Shown: positions 16,320 through 49,676, counted from the first letter of the stretch. The stretch: DNA of 64,000 nt from Thermodesulfovibrionia bacterium (GCA_947259645.1 CAMYND010000004.1:698-64697), one strand, 5' to 3'. The notes: a model not told the origin generated them from the letters alone. Program-made: numbers and translations.

Positions 16320-17900
16320 GTGTCAAAACTAGAGTTATCTATTTTAGTCGCAGACAGCAGCCCACCTGATCTTAAATCAATCAAATCATTCTTAGTTGAC
16401 GACAAAGATGTTAAGTATAACATAGAAACATCGTTATCAGGCAAAGATGCCCTTGAGAAAGCCACCATGGACCACGTTGATCTATTGCTGATAAATGATG
16501 ACCAGGACGGCTTTCAAGGCGTGAAAATACTTCAGGATGTTATTAAGAAAAAGATAGGCGTGCCGGTAATTATGATCGTTGCTGAAGGTGCAGAGACCCA
16601 CGGTGTAAAGGCCATGGATAAAGGGGCATATGACTTTTTGACTAAAAATGAGGCGAAAACAAACGCCCTGAGCCGGTCTATTCGAAGAGTTATGCAGAGG
16701 CAAAAGCTGGAAAATGATATTAAAAAATCACTTGAAAAAATGGAGAAACTTGCCATTAGAGATGGTCTTACCGGGGTGTATAACAGGCATCACTTCAAAG
16801 ATGTCATAAAAAAAGAGTACAAGAAAGCCCAGAGGCATGTGCAGCCGCTGTCATGCATAATGCTCGATCTTGACCACTTTAAGAATACAAATGATACTCA
16901 TGGACACCAGTTCGGAGATGCGGTTCTGGTCCAGGCCGCAAAAATCATGAAAAAGCTGGTGAGAGACACAGACTTTGTTGCACGCTACGGTGGGGAGGAG
17001 TTTTTTATAATCCTGCCAAACACCGAATTAAATGGAGCATATATTCTTGCAGAGAGAATGCGGCTGGCATTTGCCAACAATATATTTAAAAAGGACGATA
17101 TCTCTGAAATTGTGACAGTCAGTATTGGTGTGTCTACCGCGGCAGATGAAAATATCGTAAGTGAATATGACCTGATTGCCAACGCTGACAAGGCGCTGTA
17201 TCAGGCTAAATGGAGAGGCAGAAACAATGTCTGTTCTTATGAAGAGACAACAATAAAAGAAACGAACAGCATCAGTGAAGACAGCGGGAAGATAGAAGAT
17301 TTTCATGATAAACTGAGAAATCTTCATGAGAACATCAAAGAGAACTGTATAGAGTCAGCCCACGATATTCTGCGTGAAATTGAAAAGGGATGGGACTACT
17401 TTAATGAACATTCAATACGAGTCGGACGTTACGCGGAAAGACTCACAAAAGAGCTGTCCCTTTCAGATGAAGAGATCAGAACAATTCGTCATGCTGCGCT
17501 TCTTCATGATATTGGAATGGTGGGCATCAGCTCGAAGATTCTGAAGAAGAAAAGCAAGCTTTCCAGCGATGAATATGATGTAATCAAGAGGCACTCCAAC
17601 ATCGGGGTAAAAATTGTTAATAAAACAAGACTCTTTGAAAAAGAACTTCCGCTGATCCTCTATCATCATGAACGATACGATGGTTCAGGCTACCCGCACA
17701 GGCTTAAAGGTGATGCAATACCCTTTGGAGCGCGAGTTCTCGCAGTTGCAGAAGCATATGATGCCATGATGAACGGCACGAGATACAGAAAAGCCTATTC
17801 TTCAAAGGAGGCTATTTCAGAACTGAAACAGTGTTCAGGTACGCAATTTGATCCTCAGATGGTGGATGCCTTCATCACTCTGATACACAGGTCAAAATAA
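16320..17900 (+). CDS. Receiver-like domain + GGDEF + HD-GYP protein (c-di-GMP synthesis and hydrolysis domains in one chain)
   Basis: GTG start. The GGDEF domain has RDTD-x5-GGEEF. The HD-GYP domain has HAALLHDIG and HHERYDGSGYP. The N-terminal REC-like domain has atypical conserved positions. Confidence 0.85.
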   Translation: MSKLELSILVADSSPPDLKSIKSFLVDDKDVKYNIETSLSGKDALEKATMDHVDLLLINDDQDGFQGVKILQDVIKKKIGVPVIMIVAEGAETHGVKAMDKGAYDFLTKNEAKTNALSRSIRRVMQRQKLENDIKKSLEKMEKLAIRDGLTGVYNRHHFKDVIKKEYKKAQRHVQPLSCIMLDLDHFKNTNDTHGHQFGDAVLVQAAKIMKKLVRDTDFVARYGGEEFFIILPNTELNGAYILAERMRLAFANNIFKKDDISEIVTVSIGVSTAADENIVSEYDLIANADKALYQAKWRGRNNVCSYEETTIKETNSISEDSGKIEDFHDKLRNLHENIKENCIESAHDILREIEKGWDYFNEHSIRVGRYAERLTKELSLSDEEIRTIRHAALLHDIGMVGISSKILKKKSKLSSDEYDVIKRHSNIGVKIVNKTRLFEKELPLILYHHERYDGSGYPHRLKGDAIPFGARVLAVAEAYDAMMNGTRYRKAYSSKEAISELKQCSGTQFDPQMVDAFITLIHRSK

Positions 17901-38254: not shown

Positions 38255-38566
38255 TTACTTTGTAGAAGTCTGGTACACCTGGCCTGGTTTGAGCAGGACA
38301 AAGTTGTCAATACCTTCTTCATCCTTGATCTTTTTAAAGACATCGCATGACATACAAGATACGGATTTCTGTGCAAAATCGCCCTGAACCTTTCCCCCGC
38401 AGAAAGTTCCCGCTATTGCCCAACAGATTCGACCTGCACTCGTACCGTTGTTTACACCGGTACAGGAAGTTTCCTTGGCAGCAGGGCATACCCCAAACTC
38501 AGAGACATTTTTACCATTTGGTTCTCTCCCGCACATTTTCAATTCCCAGCAATTTTTTATCGACAT
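38255..38566 (-). CDS. Stand-alone Cys-rich 'two-CW'-type domain protein
   Basis: 103 aa, 8 Cys, with two CW motifs: 'NCWELKMCGREPNG' and 'GRICWAIAGTFCGG', then 'CMSCDVF'. RBS gggagg. It has its own terminator and a candidate sigma-28 promoter. Confidence 0.6.
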   Translation of the reverse strand: MSIKNCWELKMCGREPNGKNVSEFGVCPAAKETSCTGVNNGTSAGRICWAIAGTFCGGKVQGDFAQKSVSCMSCDVFKKIKDEEGIDNFVLLKPGQVYQTSTK

Positions 38567-38714: not shown

Positions 38715-39758
38715 TTATACTGCATTAATCAGTTCACCCGCAATCTCAGTCAGGGGGATAATTTTATCAGCACATCCGGAATTAATAACAGCGCGGGGCA
38801 TTCCATAAACAATGCACGATTCTTCACTTTCAGCAATGGTTCTTCCCCCTTTGTTCTTTATCTCTTTCATTCCCTTTGCACCATCATTCCCCAGTCCCGT
38901 CAAAATAACTCCCAGTACATGACCTGAAAAAAACTCTACGACAGACTGCATTAAAAAATCTACAGATGGCTTGTATATATATTTTCCATTATCTTTCACT
39001 ATTTTTATGGTGGTTTTTGTGAGCCGGTCCTGAGCAATACCCATGTGGCATCCACCGGGAGCGATATACACATGACCCTCAGAGATGGCTTCACCATCTT
39101 CAGCCTCTTTTACACTTACCGCACTCAAATGGTTCAGCCGTTCAGCAAAAGGACCTGTGAATGAAGCCGGCATATGCTGCGCTATGAGAACTGGTACCGG
39201 ATAGTTCTCGGGCAAAGAGCTTATTATACTCTGCAAAGCCCTGGGGCCTCCTGTTGAAGAGCCGATTGAGACAATTCCAACTGTTCTTCGGGATGAATAG
39301 GTTTGTGTCTTTTGCTTGATATCCAAAGGCCTGGAGGGCAGGAGAACTCTCTTATGACCATTGCCGTTTCTGCAGATGTTCTTTATTTTCTCTATTAACA
39401 CCTCTTTAATCTTTACAATGTTAATGGAGAGGTCTGAAAGGTTTTTTGGTATAAAATCAACCGCTCCGATATCGAGGGCGTCCAGCGTTACTTCTACCCC
39501 TTCAGTTGTAAGCCTGCTTACCATAATAACCGGCACAGGGGTTTTCTCCATAATCAGTTTCAGGGCTTCGATACCATTCATGCGCGGCATTTCAACATCC
39601 AGCGTAACGATATCTGGTTTAAGCTCAGCAACTTTATCAACAGCTTCTACTCCGTCCCGTGCGGTACCGATAATCGTTATTTCCGGATCACTTGAAATCA
39701 TGCTCGAGAGAGCATTTCTCATGAATGCAGAATCATCTACAACTAATACATTAATCAT
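38715..39758 (-). CDS. cheB: Chemotaxis response regulator protein-glutamate methylesterase CheB
   Basis: REC domain ('VLVVDDSAFMR', 'IVTLDVEMPRMNG') plus esterase domain ('GSSTGGPRAL', 'HMPASFT', 'GLGNDGA'). Confidence 0.9.
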   Translation of the reverse strand: MINVLVVDDSAFMRNALSSMISSDPEITIIGTARDGVEAVDKVAELKPDIVTLDVEMPRMNGIEALKLIMEKTPVPVIMVSRLTTEGVEVTLDALDIGAVDFIPKNLSDLSINIVKIKEVLIEKIKNICRNGNGHKRVLLPSRPLDIKQKTQTYSSRRTVGIVSIGSSTGGPRALQSIISSLPENYPVPVLIAQHMPASFTGPFAERLNHLSAVSVKEAEDGEAISEGHVYIAPGGCHMGIAQDRLTKTTIKIVKDNGKYIYKPSVDFLMQSVVEFFSGHVLGVILTGLGNDGAKGMKEIKNKGGRTIAESEESCIVYGMPRAVINSGCADKIIPLTEIAGELINAV

Positions 39759-40320: not shown

Positions 40321-41577
40321 CTAAAATCCAAATTCATTTAGGAGGGACTCCACATCAGACTGTGAAATGCTCTCCCTTGGTTTTTCTCCTGTCCCGACAT
40401 TACTCTGATCTACTGGAGTGCCAACGGAACAGCTCCCTGTTTGCATGCTAAACCTCGATATCAGTTTCAGGAGTTCGGCCTCTACACTGTTCACCAGGTT
40501 AATAACCCTTATTATCGTTTGACCAGTTATGTCCTGATATTGCTGAGCGGTAAGTATTTCAGTCATATTATGATCAAGAGCTTCTTTGAACACTTTCAGG
40601 TATGCCTTTGAGTCATCATGCCCCTGGAGTCTATCAATATGTCTGCTGAAATCGCTGCTCTCCTGAAAGTATCGCTCTACACAGGACAACGTTCTGTTTG
40701 CCGAGAGCTCGTTTTTTGAGATAACAAGGTGAAGGCTGTCAACAGCCTGGGGCACATCATTATCAGTTAATTGTTGAAGGCCATCTTTAATGTCACTATT
40801 AAATGTTTCAAGGGAATCATGTATTTTCCTGGTTATTTTTCCAACTTCTGTGAAAATGTCATTGTCTGATGTTTTGACAAGATCAGAAATTAACTGATCA
40901 ATCTGCTGAAACTGACCTTTTGAGAGTGCGTCCATAAAGTCAAGCATCAGATCGAAAAAAGTATGATGTGCACTATTATTATCAAATCTACCCTTCATGT
41001 ACTCCCTGGCTTCTTGCAGTGTATCTGTACTGCGCCTGAGCAGTGAGGGATCTTTCTCCCCATCATTGGTTAAGGGTGTCGAAGTTACAGCGTTAGCCGT
41101 AATATCATTTAAGGTGTTCAGATGCTTCCGTGGCAGTAAATTGTATGTATCCAGCAGTATGATAAGATTATCATTCAACTTTGCTATACCTGCAACTGTG
41201 GCGACTTCGCTGTTTGCAATGTTCTCAATTCTGTCAACTTCTGAATCCTGCACCTTAATTACACCTGTGATCCCGTCAACAATAATGCCGAATGTTGTTG
41301 AGCCCGTTGTGAGGACAATAACCGTATCGCCCGATTCTTCATCGACTGAACTGTTTAGAAGGATGTTCAGGTTTAGCAGGGGAACAATAGCTCCTCTGAG
41401 GTTTGTTATTCCCCGTATGCAGGAAGGGAGGTCAGGAAGAGCGGTCACCAGAGGTGTGCTGATAATTTCACGAACATCTAATATCGGGACCATGTACTCA
41501 ACAGAGTTTACATTAAACCCTATATACTGCTGGACAGGACTTTTGCTGAGGCATTGTGGCGCTTCTGCTATATTCAT
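40321..41577 (-). CDS. CheW-domain / CheZ phosphatase fusion protein
   Basis: The N-terminal ~150 aa are CheW-like ('YIGFNVNSVEYMVPILDVREII', 'IRGITNLRGAIVPLLNL', 'GIIVDGITGV'). The C-terminal part carries the CheZ active-site helix 'AQQYQDITGQTIIRVINLV' and a CheZ-type C-terminal peptide 'SDVESLLNEFGF'. Confidence 0.8.
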   Translation of the reverse strand: MNIAEAPQCLSKSPVQQYIGFNVNSVEYMVPILDVREIISTPLVTALPDLPSCIRGITNLRGAIVPLLNLNILLNSSVDEESGDTVIVLTTGSTTFGIIVDGITGVIKVQDSEVDRIENIANSEVATVAGIAKLNDNLIILLDTYNLLPRKHLNTLNDITANAVTSTPLTNDGEKDPSLLRRSTDTLQEAREYMKGRFDNNSAHHTFFDLMLDFMDALSKGQFQQIDQLISDLVKTSDNDIFTEVGKITRKIHDSLETFNSDIKDGLQQLTDNDVPQAVDSLHLVISKNELSANRTLSCVERYFQESSDFSRHIDRLQGHDDSKAYLKVFKEALDHNMTEILTAQQYQDITGQTIIRVINLVNSVEAELLKLISRFSMQTGSCSVGTPVDQSNVGTGEKPRESISQSDVESLLNEFGF

Positions 41578-43449: not shown

Positions 43450-43839
43450 CTATATATTCACTTTATCAAATATATTCTCGATCTTTTCTTTCAGGATTTC
43501 TCCGGTAAAGGGCTTAACTACATAATTATTTACTCCTGCCTGTATTGCGGCGATCACCCTCTCTTTTTCTGCTTCAGCAGTAACCATAAGTATCGGGATC
43601 TCTTTCAGGTCCGGATCGCTCCTTACTTTCTTTAACAGGTCCAGGCCATTCATGTTCGGCATGTTCCAGTCGCTGATAACAAGACCGAATCCGCCGTTCT
43701 GAAGCCTTGAATATGCCTGGGCTCCATCCTCTGCCTCTTCAACATTCTCATAGCCGATCTGCCGTAGAAGGTTTTTCACTATTCTCCTCATAGTGGAGAA
43801 GTCATCAACAACCAGTATCTTCATATTAGGGTCTGACAT
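43450..43839 (-). CDS. cheY: Chemotaxis response regulator CheY
   Basis: '[15 protein letters not shown]', '[21 protein letters not shown]', '[11 protein letters not shown]' and 'YVVKPFT' closely parallel E. coli CheY. The start is moved to the ATG preceded by aggaga (MSDPNMKIL...). Confidence 0.9.
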
Positions 43840-44224
43840 TATTTGTTTCTCCTGTGGCAAACATTTGTTTAATTATAGACTTGATGTTTTGTGCTATCGC
43901 ATCTCCTGTTACAGGTTTAACCAGATATCCGTTTGCCCCTGAACTGAGTGCCTTCGCTCGCTCTTCTTCATCATTTTCTGTTGTCACCATCAGGACAGGG
44001 ATTTCACTTAACTGGGGGTCTGCCCGTAGTGTCTTGATCAACTCCATTCCGTCCATGTAGGGCATGTTCAGGTCGGTCATCACCAGGTTAACGGTTTCAG
44101 TTCCGAGTTTTTCCAGCGCATCAAGACCATTTTCGGCAAAGACCACAGTATACCCCCTGGTTTTAAGGTAATGGCCTAAGAGCTTCCTTGTTGTCTGGCA
44201 ATCGTCTACGATCATAATATTCAT
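43826..44224 (-). CDS. Second CheY-like single-domain response regulator
   Basis: 132 aa with '[14 protein letters not shown]', '[13 protein letters not shown]' and 'YLVKPVT'. Confidence 0.85.
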
Positions 44225-44288: not shown

Positions 44289-45110
44289 TTACTCTTTCCT
44301 GTACACAATTACTTTATTTATAACGATCGGTCTGAACGCGCGTGTTACGCTTCTAAGGCTTTCAGATGAGCCGATAATTAGATATCCCCCCGGGACAAGG
44401 CTGTCATAGAGACCGGAAACCACTTTCTGTTTGGCTTTGGTATCAAAGTAGATAAGAACATTCCGGCAAAAAATAATGTCCATTCCCCGAAGAGGTTTTG
44501 TGCTGGTTTCGTCAATCAGGTTTGCTTTCTTGAAGTCAACACTGTTCTTGATTGGATCGCATAGCGTGTAAGAACCCCCGCTGCTCGTAAAATACTTTTC
44601 CAGATAGGGCTTTGGAACATTACGGATGGCATAGTTATTATAAACTGCTCTCTTTGCCGTAGACAGGGCCCCTACGCACAGATCAGATCCGAATATTTCA
44701 ACATTTTGATCAAGGTTTTTATCTTTAAGCAAGAGTGACAGCGTGTAGGGCTCTTCTCCGGAAGAGCATGCTGACGACCAGATTTTTATTATTTGACCTG
44801 ATTTCTTTGTTTCCAAAATATTGCGAAAAACAGAATCGATAAAAACATCAAGCTGAAGCGGCTCCCTGAAAAAATAGGTCTCATTCGTTGTGACCGCATC
44901 AAAGAGCCGTGTCAATTCATTTCCGTTAGAACTTGTTTTGATTACGCTCAGGTATTCATCAAAAGTTGTTAACTTTTTTTCCTGAAGAATACGGGAGAGC
45001 CGGTTTTCGATGAGGTATTTCTTTGTGTCAGCTATAAATATACCGCTGTTATCATAGATATAATCTCTGAGACCCTTAAACGCTGAATCTGAGAGCGGTA
45101 TTTTTAGCAT
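44289..45110 (-). CDS. cheR: Chemotaxis protein methyltransferase CheR
   Basis: 'TNETYFFREP', 'IWSSACSSGEEPYTLSLLL' and 'DIIFCRNVLIYFD'. Confidence 0.9.
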   Translation of the reverse strand: MLKIPLSDSAFKGLRDYIYDNSGIFIADTKKYLIENRLSRILQEKKLTTFDEYLSVIKTSSNGNELTRLFDAVTTNETYFFREPLQLDVFIDSVFRNILETKKSGQIIKIWSSACSSGEEPYTLSLLLKDKNLDQNVEIFGSDLCVGALSTAKRAVYNNYAIRNVPKPYLEKYFTSSGGSYTLCDPIKNSVDFKKANLIDETSTKPLRGMDIIFCRNVLIYFDTKAKQKVVSGLYDSLVPGGYLIIGSSESLRSVTRAFRPIVINKVIVYRKE

Positions 45111-46685: not shown

Positions 46686-48017
46686 TCAGGTTCTCATAAT
46701 GTTCAGTTCGTCATTATCGCTGTGGGTCGGAGAGTTTTGCTGCTCTGTAACGTCCTCTTCTGTCAAGACCTTGTTTCTTCCTGACCGCTTGGCCATGTAT
46801 AGTGCGCTGTCTGCTCTTTCAAATACAGTGCTGGTCGTATCTCCCTTCCTGAACAAACTGATACCTACACTGATAGTGAGAGGGATTTCCTGGTTTCTGT
46901 AGGAAAATATGGATTCGTCGATAAAAGCCCGTAAGCTTTCTCCTACTTTCTGTGCTCCATCCAGATCTGTATGAGGCAAGATGACTGCAAACTCCTCACC
47001 CCCGTATCTGAACGTGAAATCATTGATCCTGAGTCTCTCTTTTAATAGCGAGGCCAGCTTTTTCAGGGCAAGGTCTCCCACCTTGTGGCCGTTGTTGTCA
47101 TTGATTTTTTTAAAGAAATCAATGTCGCATAAAACCAGCGAAGCTGTTACATTGTATCGCGTTACATCAGCGAGGACTTCTTCAATTTTCTGGTCATATG
47201 CCCTTCGATTCTGCAAACCTGTCAGGCTGTCCTGGTACACTTCGTATTGAATCTCTTCGGATTTTCTTCGTATTTCATCGGCTTCACGCTTAATCTCCGA
47301 CATACGTTTGCTCATTTCCTCAATGGTATCTTCTGTTTTTTTCAATCGTATTGAGTCGTCCTGCTTCTTACTGTTTATGACTTTATTTATGCGGTCTATT
47401 TTATCCTTAATCGCGACCTTGATTTTGGCAAGATTTCCCGGCTTGTCAATATCAGTGCATATGGTGGTTATGTCAGACGTTAAAGTGCTCTCAAAAATCC
47501 GGTCGCTTTTATATTGCTCCTGTTGAGTTGAGAGTCCGGTTGTCATCTGAACTTCAGTTATTTCAAGGCAATCCATCGTCTGTTTCATCAGATCTTCCAG
47601 CTCTGCCTTCTGAACAGAAATATAGTCAATGTATTGTTTTATCAGTTCAATCGGGGTGTTTAACCAGTCAGTAGAGGTGACGTCAGGGATGTTTTCGTGT
47701 ATCTCTTCCCTCAGGTTGCTGAAGTTGTCCGAAATGTGGGACGGTATGAGAACAGTAAATTTATCAAGTATTTCATTTGAAATACCTTTGAGCGCTACAG
47801 GGTCTATGAAAGATTTCCCTGATTTTCCGGCAGGAAAGGCGAGCGCATTTTTTACGGATTCATTCCAGACCATTTTATCAGCTATTGTTTTGCTACTGAT
47901 TTTCTGTTTGTTTTCCCTGGAAAGTTCTTTCAAGATATTCAGTACTTCATCTGCAATAACGTAGACTTTTTCCTGAAACTCCTCATTTGCGTCAGTTAGA
48001 TCAACTTTCTGAACCAT
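46686..48017 (-). CDS. Diguanylate cyclase (GGDEF) with an uncharacterised ~270-aa helical N-terminal region, paralog 1
   Basis: 'LTGLQNRRAY', the I-site plus A-site 'RINDFTFRYGGEEF', and 'DSALYMAKRSGRN'. No TM segments. Confidence 0.85.
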   Translation of the reverse strand: MVQKVDLTDANEEFQEKVYVIADEVLNILKELSRENKQKISSKTIADKMVWNESVKNALAFPAGKSGKSFIDPVALKGISNEILDKFTVLIPSHISDNFSNLREEIHENIPDVTSTDWLNTPIELIKQYIDYISVQKAELEDLMKQTMDCLEITEVQMTTGLSTQQEQYKSDRIFESTLTSDITTICTDIDKPGNLAKIKVAIKDKIDRINKVINSKKQDDSIRLKKTEDTIEEMSKRMSEIKREADEIRRKSEEIQYEVYQDSLTGLQNRRAYDQKIEEVLADVTRYNVTASLVLCDIDFFKKINDNNGHKVGDLALKKLASLLKERLRINDFTFRYGGEEFAVILPHTDLDGAQKVGESLRAFIDESIFSYRNQEIPLTISVGISLFRKGDTTSTVFERADSALYMAKRSGRNKVLTEEDVTEQQNSPTHSDNDELNIMRT

Positions 48018-48323: not shown

Positions 48324-49676
48324 TCAGGTTGTAACAGACTTATTTCCGAGCACACTGCCTTCCCGGATAACATCCTGTTCAGTCCGGACTGTATTTCGAC
48401 CGGAATTTTTTGCCAGATAAAGGGCGCTGTCCGCCCTTTCCATAACAGATTCAGCAGAGTCGTCTTTTCTGAATCCGCTTATGCCTATACTGATTTTGAG
48501 TGCTATGTCCTGATTCTTATAGGAGAATTGTGCTTTATCAATGTAGAGCCGGAGAGCTTCTCCTGCTTTCTGAGCTTCACCCAGGGTGGTATGGGGGAGA
48601 ATTATGGCGAACTCTTCGCCCCCGAACCTTGAGATAAAATCATTTACTCTCAATTTTTCCTTCAGTAGTGCAGAGAGCTTTTTCAGTGCAAGGTCGCCCA
48701 CTGTGTGGCCGAATGTGTCGTTTATTTTCTTAAAGAAGTCAATGTCGCAGAACACAAGTGCTGACGGTACGCCGTACCTGTTGAGGTTGGCAATTGTTTC
48801 ATCCACTTTCTGGTCGTACGCCTTCCGGTTATAGAGGCCTGTCAGTCTGTCGCGGAGAGACTCCATTTCCAGTTCCTCGGCTTTCTTCCTTATATCGTCG
48901 GCTTCTTTTTTGATGCCATGTATCCTGCTTCCCATAGAGGCAAGTGTCTGTTCAGTTTCTTTTAAGCGATTAATATCCTGCTCTCTTTTCCTGTCAATAG
49001 CGTTGTTAATATTACCGATCTTACCGAGCACGGCTTTCTTGAGGTTCTGAAAGCCATCTGTTACAGAACCGGAGGACACAAAATTATCAGTGATCAGATT
49101 CATGTTTACAGATATGCTTTTTTCAAATTCCCTGTCTTCATTAAATTTTGTCTGATGAAGGGAAAGCTCTGCAGCGATATGTTCTTCTGTTTCTTGCAGA
49201 TACCGAACCGTCTGCTGCATGAATTCTTCAAGTTCCTTGTTTTTAAGATACAGGGCATCAAAATATATCTTGATATATTTCATCAGAGAATCCAGCCTGC
49301 TGGCCGTACTTTCGAATGAGTCCCTGTCATGGAGCTGTTTTTTGAGTTCAAGGATCTCCTCGGTCAGCATATCAGGCGCAAGGTCTGAGAATTTGTCAAG
49401 AAAAGATGATGTAATCTCTTTCAGGCGGTTCAGCTCCTTTTTTGATTCCTGATTAAGCGGGTCATCACTGCCTTGCTGACCCGGTGTTGGATCAGCCAGC
49501 ATTTTCTTTACTGTGTCACGAACTGCCATGCGTTCTGCTATTGACTTGGAATTGAGCTGTTTTTTGTTGTCATGTGACAGCTGCTTGAGAATATCCAGAA
49601 CTTCGTCTGCTATAACATATATTTTTTCTTCCAGTATGGAAGAAATCCCGTCTTTAGCTAAAGGTTTCTTATCCAT
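48324..49676 (-). CDS. Diguanylate cyclase (GGDEF), paralog 2 with the same architecture
   Basis: 'LTGLYNRKAY', 'RVNDFISRFGGEEF' and 'DSALYLAKNSGRN'. The N-terminal region is colinear with paralog 1 ('EKIYVIADEVLDILKQLS' vs 'EKVYVIADEVLNILKELS'). Confidence 0.85.
   Translation of the reverse strand: MDKKPLAKDGISSILEEKIYVIADEVLDILKQLSHDNKKQLNSKSIAERMAVRDTVKKMLADPTPGQQGSDDPLNQESKKELNRLKEITSSFLDKFSDLAPDMLTEEILELKKQLHDRDSFESTASRLDSLMKYIKIYFDALYLKNKELEEFMQQTVRYLQETEEHIAAELSLHQTKFNEDREFEKSISVNMNLITDNFVSSGSVTDGFQNLKKAVLGKIGNINNAIDRKREQDINRLKETEQTLASMGSRIHGIKKEADDIRKKAEELEMESLRDRLTGLYNRKAYDQKVDETIANLNRYGVPSALVFCDIDFFKKINDTFGHTVGDLALKKLSALLKEKLRVNDFISRFGGEEFAIILPHTTLGEAQKAGEALRLYIDKAQFSYKNQDIALKISIGISGFRKDDSAESVMERADSALYLAKNSGRNTVRTEQDVIREGSVLGNKSVTT

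Follow-up and report, generated by a model that had tools for sequence, protein, structure and literature searches.

Organization of the chemotaxis locus

The window, the whole 64,000-nucleotide stretch of DNA analysed here (Thermodesulfovibrionia bacterium, GCA_947259645.1, CAMYND010000004.1:698-64697), carries on its minus strand a chemotaxis cluster in the order HEAT-repeat gene, cheR, cheY-like, cheY, cheA, cheW-cheZ, cheW, cheB and a gene for a two-CW domain protein (Table 1). A flagellar regulon surrounds the cluster, with fliK, flgD and flgE on one side and fliL, fliM, fliP, fliR, flhB, flhA, flhF, flhG, fliA, flgF, flgG, flgA and flgH on the other.

Table 1. Chemotaxis genes of the window and parts of the cheW-cheZ fusion gene, with the evidence for each assignment
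Feature	Position	Strand	Evidence
cheW-cheZ fusion gene	40321..41577	-	Single ORF; Pfam CheW and CheZ above gathering scores; >160 full-length homologues of the same architecture
CheW-like domain, residues 17-149	41131..41529	-	Pfam PF01584, E=7.9e-27
Inter-module linker, ~residues 150-185	41023..41130	-	AF2 pLDDT <50 at 162-183
CheZ module, residues 186-418	40324..41022	-	Pfam PF04344; AF2 secondary structure
CheZ catalytic motif Q348-D349-I-T-G-Q353	40519..40536	-	Alignment to 1kmi_Z residues 131-169
C-terminal putative CheY-binding peptide, residues 405-418, ISQSDVESLLNEFGF region	40324..40365	-	Alignment to E. coli CheZ C-terminus SQDQVDDLLDSLGF
cheB, REC and methylesterase	38715..39758	-	Pfam
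Stand-alone canonical cheW, 155 aa	39786..40253	-	Pfam CheW, E=2.8e-41
cheA: Hpt, dimerisation, HATPase_c, CheW/P5	41581..43413	-	Pfam
cheY, enteric-type	43450..43860	-	phmmer E=2.9e-52 to Salmonella/E. coli CheY, full length, including the 1kmi CheY sequence
Second single-domain response regulator, cheY-like	43826..44224	-	Pfam Response_reg, E=8.9e-30
cheR	44289..45110	-	Pfam CheR and CheR_N
HEAT-repeat protein gene, 474 aa	45104..46528	-	Pfam HEAT_2, E=2e-57; 7-nt overlap with cheR

The enteric-type CheY is the likely substrate of the fusion protein. In the cheA product, Pfam gives no match to a P2/CheY-binding domain, and the linker between P1 and P3 (residues ~100-213) is of low complexity and differs between relatives; P2 is a domain often missed by HMMER (PMC10542144), and its absence from this CheA is likely.

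Several neighbours recur in related genomes. The HEAT-repeat gene is the first of the cluster and syntenic in nearly all related loci and in all clades examined, including L031 and L033; we know of no chemotaxis role for its product. Just downstream of cheB (38255-38566, minus strand) lies the gene for a Cys-rich protein of 103 aa, a two-CW domain protein by NCBIfam (NF045718, E=2.9e-30) with no Pfam match, which occupies the same position at ~70% identity in most related loci, a pattern that suggests an accessory role in this chemotaxis system, not yet characterised. Directly upstream of the cluster stand two genes for GGDEF diguanylate cyclases (46686-48017 and 48324-49676, both minus strand), the nearer one syntenic in many related loci, and further off (16320-17900, plus strand) is the gene for a REC-GGDEF protein that has an additional region at its C-terminus, which hints at c-di-GMP signalling linked to motility control. 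In seven related genomes (L002, L006, L008, L010, L013, L023, L027), ~1.5 kb missing from the window separates cheA from the fusion gene; the only such insertion inspected (L002, 4361-6028) encodes what by appearance is a putative transmembrane chemoreceptor of 555 aa.

A single gene between cheA and cheW

The fusion gene is one uninterrupted ORF of 418 codons plus stop. Its ATG lies 3 nt past the cheA stop codon with a Shine-Dalgarno-like sequence (AAAGGGA) upstream, and the stand-alone cheW that follows it has a strong ribosome-binding site of its own. The preliminary description, made from the DNA alone, had placed a 418-aa ORF between cheA and a canonical cheW; its coordinates and length prove exact, the Pfam assignments of both flanking genes uphold the placement, all the peptide strings it quoted are found in the translation, and the strand, which it left unstated, is minus. 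It had further recognised a CheW fold at residues ~17-150 and CheZ in the C-terminal ~230 residues, with the catalytic Asp and Gln conserved and an extreme C-terminus parallel to the CheY-P-binding peptide of E. coli, and the HMM matches and alignments given below bear out each of these readings. A candidate internal start, the ATG of M195 with AGGGAG 3 nt before it, might have yielded free CheZ in analogy to CheA-short; it was dropped, as M195 is not conserved in relatives.

The CheW module

The N-terminal domain scores 94 bits with PF01584, against a cut-off of 23.5, and searches of PDB sequences match it to E. coli CheW (2ho9; phmmer E=2.9e-18) and also to Thermotoga CheW. In the AF2 model, strands run through residues 15-142 and build the two-subdomain beta-barrel fold of CheW (barrels at 15-147), which superposes on the CheW of the E. 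coli core signalling unit (6s1k_C; Foldseek E=2.6e-14, TMt 0.79) and on T. maritima CheW (2ch4_Y; Foldseek TMt 0.85). Residue conservation, here and below, was counted over 166 fusion proteins. E37, I38, G56, R61 and G97, which correspond to E38, I39, G57, R62 and G99 of E. coli CheW, are invariant in all 166, and the equivalent of E. coli G63 is replaced in 21 of them by D, E, Q or S. The Glu38-Arg62 salt bridge of E. coli CheW is dispensable for assembly and binding and needed for the signalling geometry of the receptor- and kinase-binding sites (PMC3828127); it is from the strict retention of both equivalents that we argue for a domain sitting in the lattice as a working CheW, and the pattern suggests a genuine lattice protein and not a degenerate tag. 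A recent duplication of the adjoining cheW was rejected as the origin of the domain, which is only ~30% identical to the product of that gene, as it also is to E. coli CheW; it is an old, separate lineage.

The CheZ module and the inter-module linker

The remainder of the protein matches PF04344 with E=7.4e-30 and 104.8 bits, against a cut-off of 30.7, in two stretches of which the better covers residues 332-418; like that of the CheW domain, this score cannot be put down to chance. A PDB sequence search with the whole protein also matches E. coli CheZ (1kmi_Z). Its parts are an N-terminal helical extension (~186-237), a hairpin of two long helices (240-316 and 321-377, at pLDDT 70-85 in an AF2 model of the monomer only; in CheZ such a hairpin builds a dimeric four-helix bundle), a flexible linker (376-404, disordered in the AF2 model) and a C-terminal helix (406-415). 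Three short helices are predicted within residues 177-237, and this region is best assigned to the CheZ module and not to the linker, because it is at the short-helix extension that P0154 and P0183, two stand-alone members of this CheZ subfamily, begin. Foldseek gave no significant PDB match for the helical CheZ half, as is usual with long helices, and this half was assigned by HMM and sequence alignment.

With the C-terminal half as query, D349 and Q353 align with the catalytic D143 and Q147 of E. coli CheZ (1kmi_Z), and at the very end of the protein SQSDVESLLNEFGF aligns with SQDQVDDLLDSLGF of E. coli, over the predicted helix at 406-415. The catalytic Asp is present in every one of the fusion proteins (166/166) and the catalytic Gln in all but two (164/166); in the C-terminal peptide, Q406 and L413 are likewise universal (166/166) and F418 nearly so (157/166). 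Since the catalytic pair is as conserved as the peptide, phosphatase activity clearly appears to be under selection. Neither module reaches the cut-off of the NCBIfam equivalog model of its enteric counterpart, with 70.9 against 260 bits for CheW (NF007903) and 64.1 against 257 bits for CheZ (NF008368); both are distant subfamily members, below the level of orthologues of the enteric proteins, and because these scores lie so far below the cut-offs the behaviour of the protein is not simply transferable from E. coli.

The linker between the two modules is the least conserved stretch of the alignment of fusion proteins (A1). Relatives keep in it the motif E[IV]DT[IS]GGK[VI]T[VI]KEL, modelled by AF2 in a typical member (P0007) as a low-confidence beta-hairpin, and the window protein has unrelated sequence there. 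Full-length AF2 models, built as monomers, reach a pLDDT of 67-72 (66.8 for the window protein) and a pTM of ~0.36. Within its own cluster, the window fusion is the most divergent component.

Spread and gene order of the fusion family

Among 5.8 billion proteins searched, 402 are relatives at E<1e-5; the 120 best matches all have both Pfam domains, a length of 397-420 aa and 44-52% identity to the window protein. Those of the 120 that carry names are mostly called 'protein phosphatase CheZ' and come from Nitrospirota/Nitrospirae MAGs, or bear a JGI double name. Species-representative genomes contributed 30 loci, from records titled as Nitrospirota lineages except for two Deferribacteres and one unclassified bacterium, and tblastn with the window chemotaxis proteins found the order HEAT-cheR-cheY-cheY-cheA-[cheW-cheZ]-cheW-cheB kept in ~27-28 of the 30; the loci with the conserved order belong to the Nitrospirota, class Thermodesulfovibrionia. 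The window gene belongs to this family: it adjoins cheA in a flagellar che cluster, encodes CheW and, C-terminal to it, CheZ in one uninterrupted frame, and its product is 45-52% identical to other members. Among the proteins of the cluster the fusion evolves fastest, at 45-59% identity compared with 60-85% for its neighbours. One truncated fusion, in L026, was set aside as the product of a run of N in the record and not of biology.

Beyond these close relatives, a profile search of 1.84 billion representatives recovered the full architecture in at least 17 clusters formed at 50% identity, ten of them confirmed by Pfam, which share 25-50% identity with one another and nearly all of which keep QDxTGQ and the C-terminal peptide. 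Distant members come from a Thermodesulfobacteriota MAG (MFQ5328947.1) and a Deltaproteobacteria MAG, and a further one is a protein attributed by UniRef to the cultured species Thermodesulfovibrio aggregans. Four proteins of 552-554 aa (P0306-P0309) combine an N-terminal CheW with a ~230-residue spacer and a region that resembles CheZ weakly, with a score under the Pfam cut-off and a match that does not extend to the C-terminal peptide of the profile; these proteins may represent the fusion in a more divergent or decayed form. Once the fusion family is exhausted, the matches are dominated by multi-CheW proteins: many proteins of 500-770 aa in the profile-search list match the CheW part three to five times, and the two that were scanned with Pfam (P0133 and P0296) consist of three tandem CheW-like domains.

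Gene order varies outside the clade of the window. Thermodesulfovibrio-type loci (L031 and L033) read HEAT-cheR-cheY-cheY-cheA-[cheW-cheZ] followed by cheB, and there is no separate cheW within these two clusters. In the deltaproteobacterial MAG the fusion gene stands between cheY and motAB, the usual cheY-cheZ position, and further copies adjoin flagellin genes or a chemoreceptor gene. In the window's clade the chemotaxis cluster has an inverted orientation with respect to its flagellar neighbours, and in Thermodesulfovibrio-type loci it comes after flhF-flhG-fliA and runs the same way as these genes.

This distribution bears on whether the ORF could be an artefact of assembly or annotation, in which a collapsed stop or a frameshift would have made one gene of an adjacent cheW and cheZ. 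An unfused state is biologically possible, for P0154 and P0183 are CheZ proteins of this subfamily that stand alone. The ORF is nevertheless uninterrupted, and the same single ORF, with the linker region conserved, recurs in hundreds of independent assemblies (NCBI, JGI, ENA, Logan), among them complete MAG chromosomes and the sequence attributed to the cultured T. aggregans. Because so many independent assemblies encode it, a collapsed stop or frameshift is excluded, the probability of an artefact is negligible, and the single gene proposed in the preliminary description is genuine.

A proposed phosphatase tethered in the receptor array

What the sequences display directly is a two-domain architecture, its conservation together with that of the functional residues of both modules, and its position in a flagellar chemotaxis operon. 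We consider it probable that the protein is bifunctional and that its own CheW domain anchors a CheY-P phosphatase in the receptor-kinase array, and array tethering is the most economical reading; array binding, dimerisation, catalysis and the CheY substrate are here inferred. The N-terminal CheW domain would take up places in the lattice of chemoreceptors and CheA-P5 that CheW ordinarily fills, and a flexible linker of ~35 residues would join it to a complete CheZ module, which would presumably dimerise via its long helical hairpin. The C-terminal peptide would then capture CheY-P for dephosphorylation through D349 and Q353. CheA-short is the adaptor that links CheZ to the array in E. coli. 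The fusion would dispense with this adaptor and still have CheY-P destroyed at the site of its production.

Some observations count against this explanation: in the window's clade a canonical cheW adjoins the fusion gene, the fusion evolves faster than any other protein of the cluster, and the window protein has lost the linker motif. The substitutions at the G63 position, the only moderate confidence of the full-length AF2 models, the lack of a Foldseek match for the helical half and the low equivalog scores also weigh against it. With a canonical cheW next door, the fused CheW domain in this clade could be redundant or a loose tether. Taken to its end, this argument makes the CheW domain a passive anchor that merely concentrates CheZ near the arrays, at spare receptor tips or at the array edge, and neither holds lattice positions nor controls the kinase, so that all coupling falls to the adjoining CheW. 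The retention of that cheW in the window's clade, the ~30% identity and faster evolution of the fused domain relative to it, and the predicted disorder of the linker (AF2) are all compatible with such a passive role. We nonetheless regard it as rather unlikely, for not one of the 166 fusions departs from the equivalents of E38 and R62, whose salt bridge in E. coli is needed for signalling and not for binding (PMC3828127), and the Thermodesulfovibrio-type clusters have no separate cheW.

The CheA of the window suggests another role for the phosphatase half. The C-terminal peptide of CheZ binds the same surface of CheY as P2 does. A tethered CheZ peptide might therefore serve mainly to recruit CheY to a CheA that lacks P2, raising the rates of both phosphotransfer and dephosphorylation, and the very strong conservation of the peptide would fit this, as would the missing Pfam match to P2 and the low-complexity, unconserved linker between P1 and P3. 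Yet the majority of CheA proteins have no P2 and function with nothing in its place, and P2 is prone to escape HMMER in any case (PMC10542144); moreover, the catalytic Asp and Gln of the fusion are conserved as strongly as its peptide. A docking function of this kind thus seems highly improbable as the main purpose of the fusion.

A bolder version of the tethered phosphatase would make it a stoichiometric structural element of the array, with the fusion acting as the coupling protein in Thermodesulfovibrio-type systems, the CheZ dimer cross-linking two CheW positions, and phosphatase activity or access following the state of the receptors. Were this so, kinase and phosphatase would form a reciprocal switch within a single lattice. 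We hold this version to be doubtful and quite improbable as a whole, and allosteric control of the phosphatase by receptor state in particular is unlikely because the linker is flexible.

Implications for signal termination

Bacteria differ in how they localise the destruction of CheY-P, and the solutions described include both CheA binding, by which E. coli CheZ reaches the arrays non-covalently, and separate polar determinants (PMC7750401). The site of CheY-P destruction relative to that of its production shapes the intracellular signal gradient and the speed of the response, a principle established for E. coli, for example by simulations (PMC1447658). A covalent CheW-CheZ fusion would be the simplest possible solution to localisation, with the ratio of phosphatase to array fixed genetically, and it points to an uncomplicated plan for synthetic chemotaxis circuits. 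The family is a good experimental target because Thermodesulfovibrio-type clusters have no separate cheW beside the fusion, and Thermodesulfovibrio species, which are cultivable, together with the fusion attributed to T. aggregans, would offer a natural test of the effects of a lattice-embedded phosphatase on array structure and signalling.

Comparison with known systems

The preliminary description took the architecture to be uncharacterised, and this stands to the extent that the literature searched yielded no analysis of, or experiment on, a natural CheW-CheZ fusion, only engineered FRET fusions, a description in subscription literature outside that search being possible. The architecture has not gone unseen, however: NCBI and JGI pipelines automatically annotate such proteins as 'protein phosphatase CheZ', and Vass, Branscum, Bourret and Foster (bioRxiv 10.1101/2022.05.07.491035) mention CheW-like plus CheZ in one sentence as a rare Pfam architecture of CheW domains, which they left unanalysed at fewer than 40 sequences in RP35. 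Theirs is the same architecture, of which the window protein is a divergent member, and spread, synteny, conservation and function are not addressed there. Nor does the presentation of the fusion as unfamiliar survive the database survey, in which it emerges as the standard arrangement in the chemotaxis clusters of Thermodesulfovibrionia. The fusion family to which the window gene belongs, as a divergent member, is widespread, known to databases and unstudied experimentally, and the novelty of the gene is modest.

Compared with CheW of E. coli (2HO9/6S1K) and T. maritima (2CH4), the window protein has the same two-barrel fold and the same E38, I39, G57, R62, G99 and V108, and differs by ~270 additional C-terminal residues. 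With E. coli CheZ (1KMI; PF04344) it shares the D143/Q147 motif (QDxTGQ), the predicted long hairpin, the flexible linker and a C-terminal helix ending in GF, and its likely partner is likewise an enteric-type CheY; its own additions are the CheW domain at the N-terminus and a helical extension that is ~50 residues long and specific to the subfamily, and its hairpin is ~21 residues shorter by pairwise alignment.

In design, CheV and the CheA-CheC/CheX fusions of Leptospirae come nearest to the window fusion. CheV joins a CheW-like domain to a receiver and shares with the window fusion the logic of placing a second phospho-signalling module in the array beside a canonical CheW, whereas the window fusion appends a phosphatase and not a phosphorylatable receiver, no REC domain being found in it by Pfam. 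In the Leptospirae fusions (PMC10542144) a CheY-P phosphatase is likewise covalently joined to an array component, but that phosphatase belongs to an unrelated family (CheC/CheX) and is attached to the kinase and not to a CheW domain.
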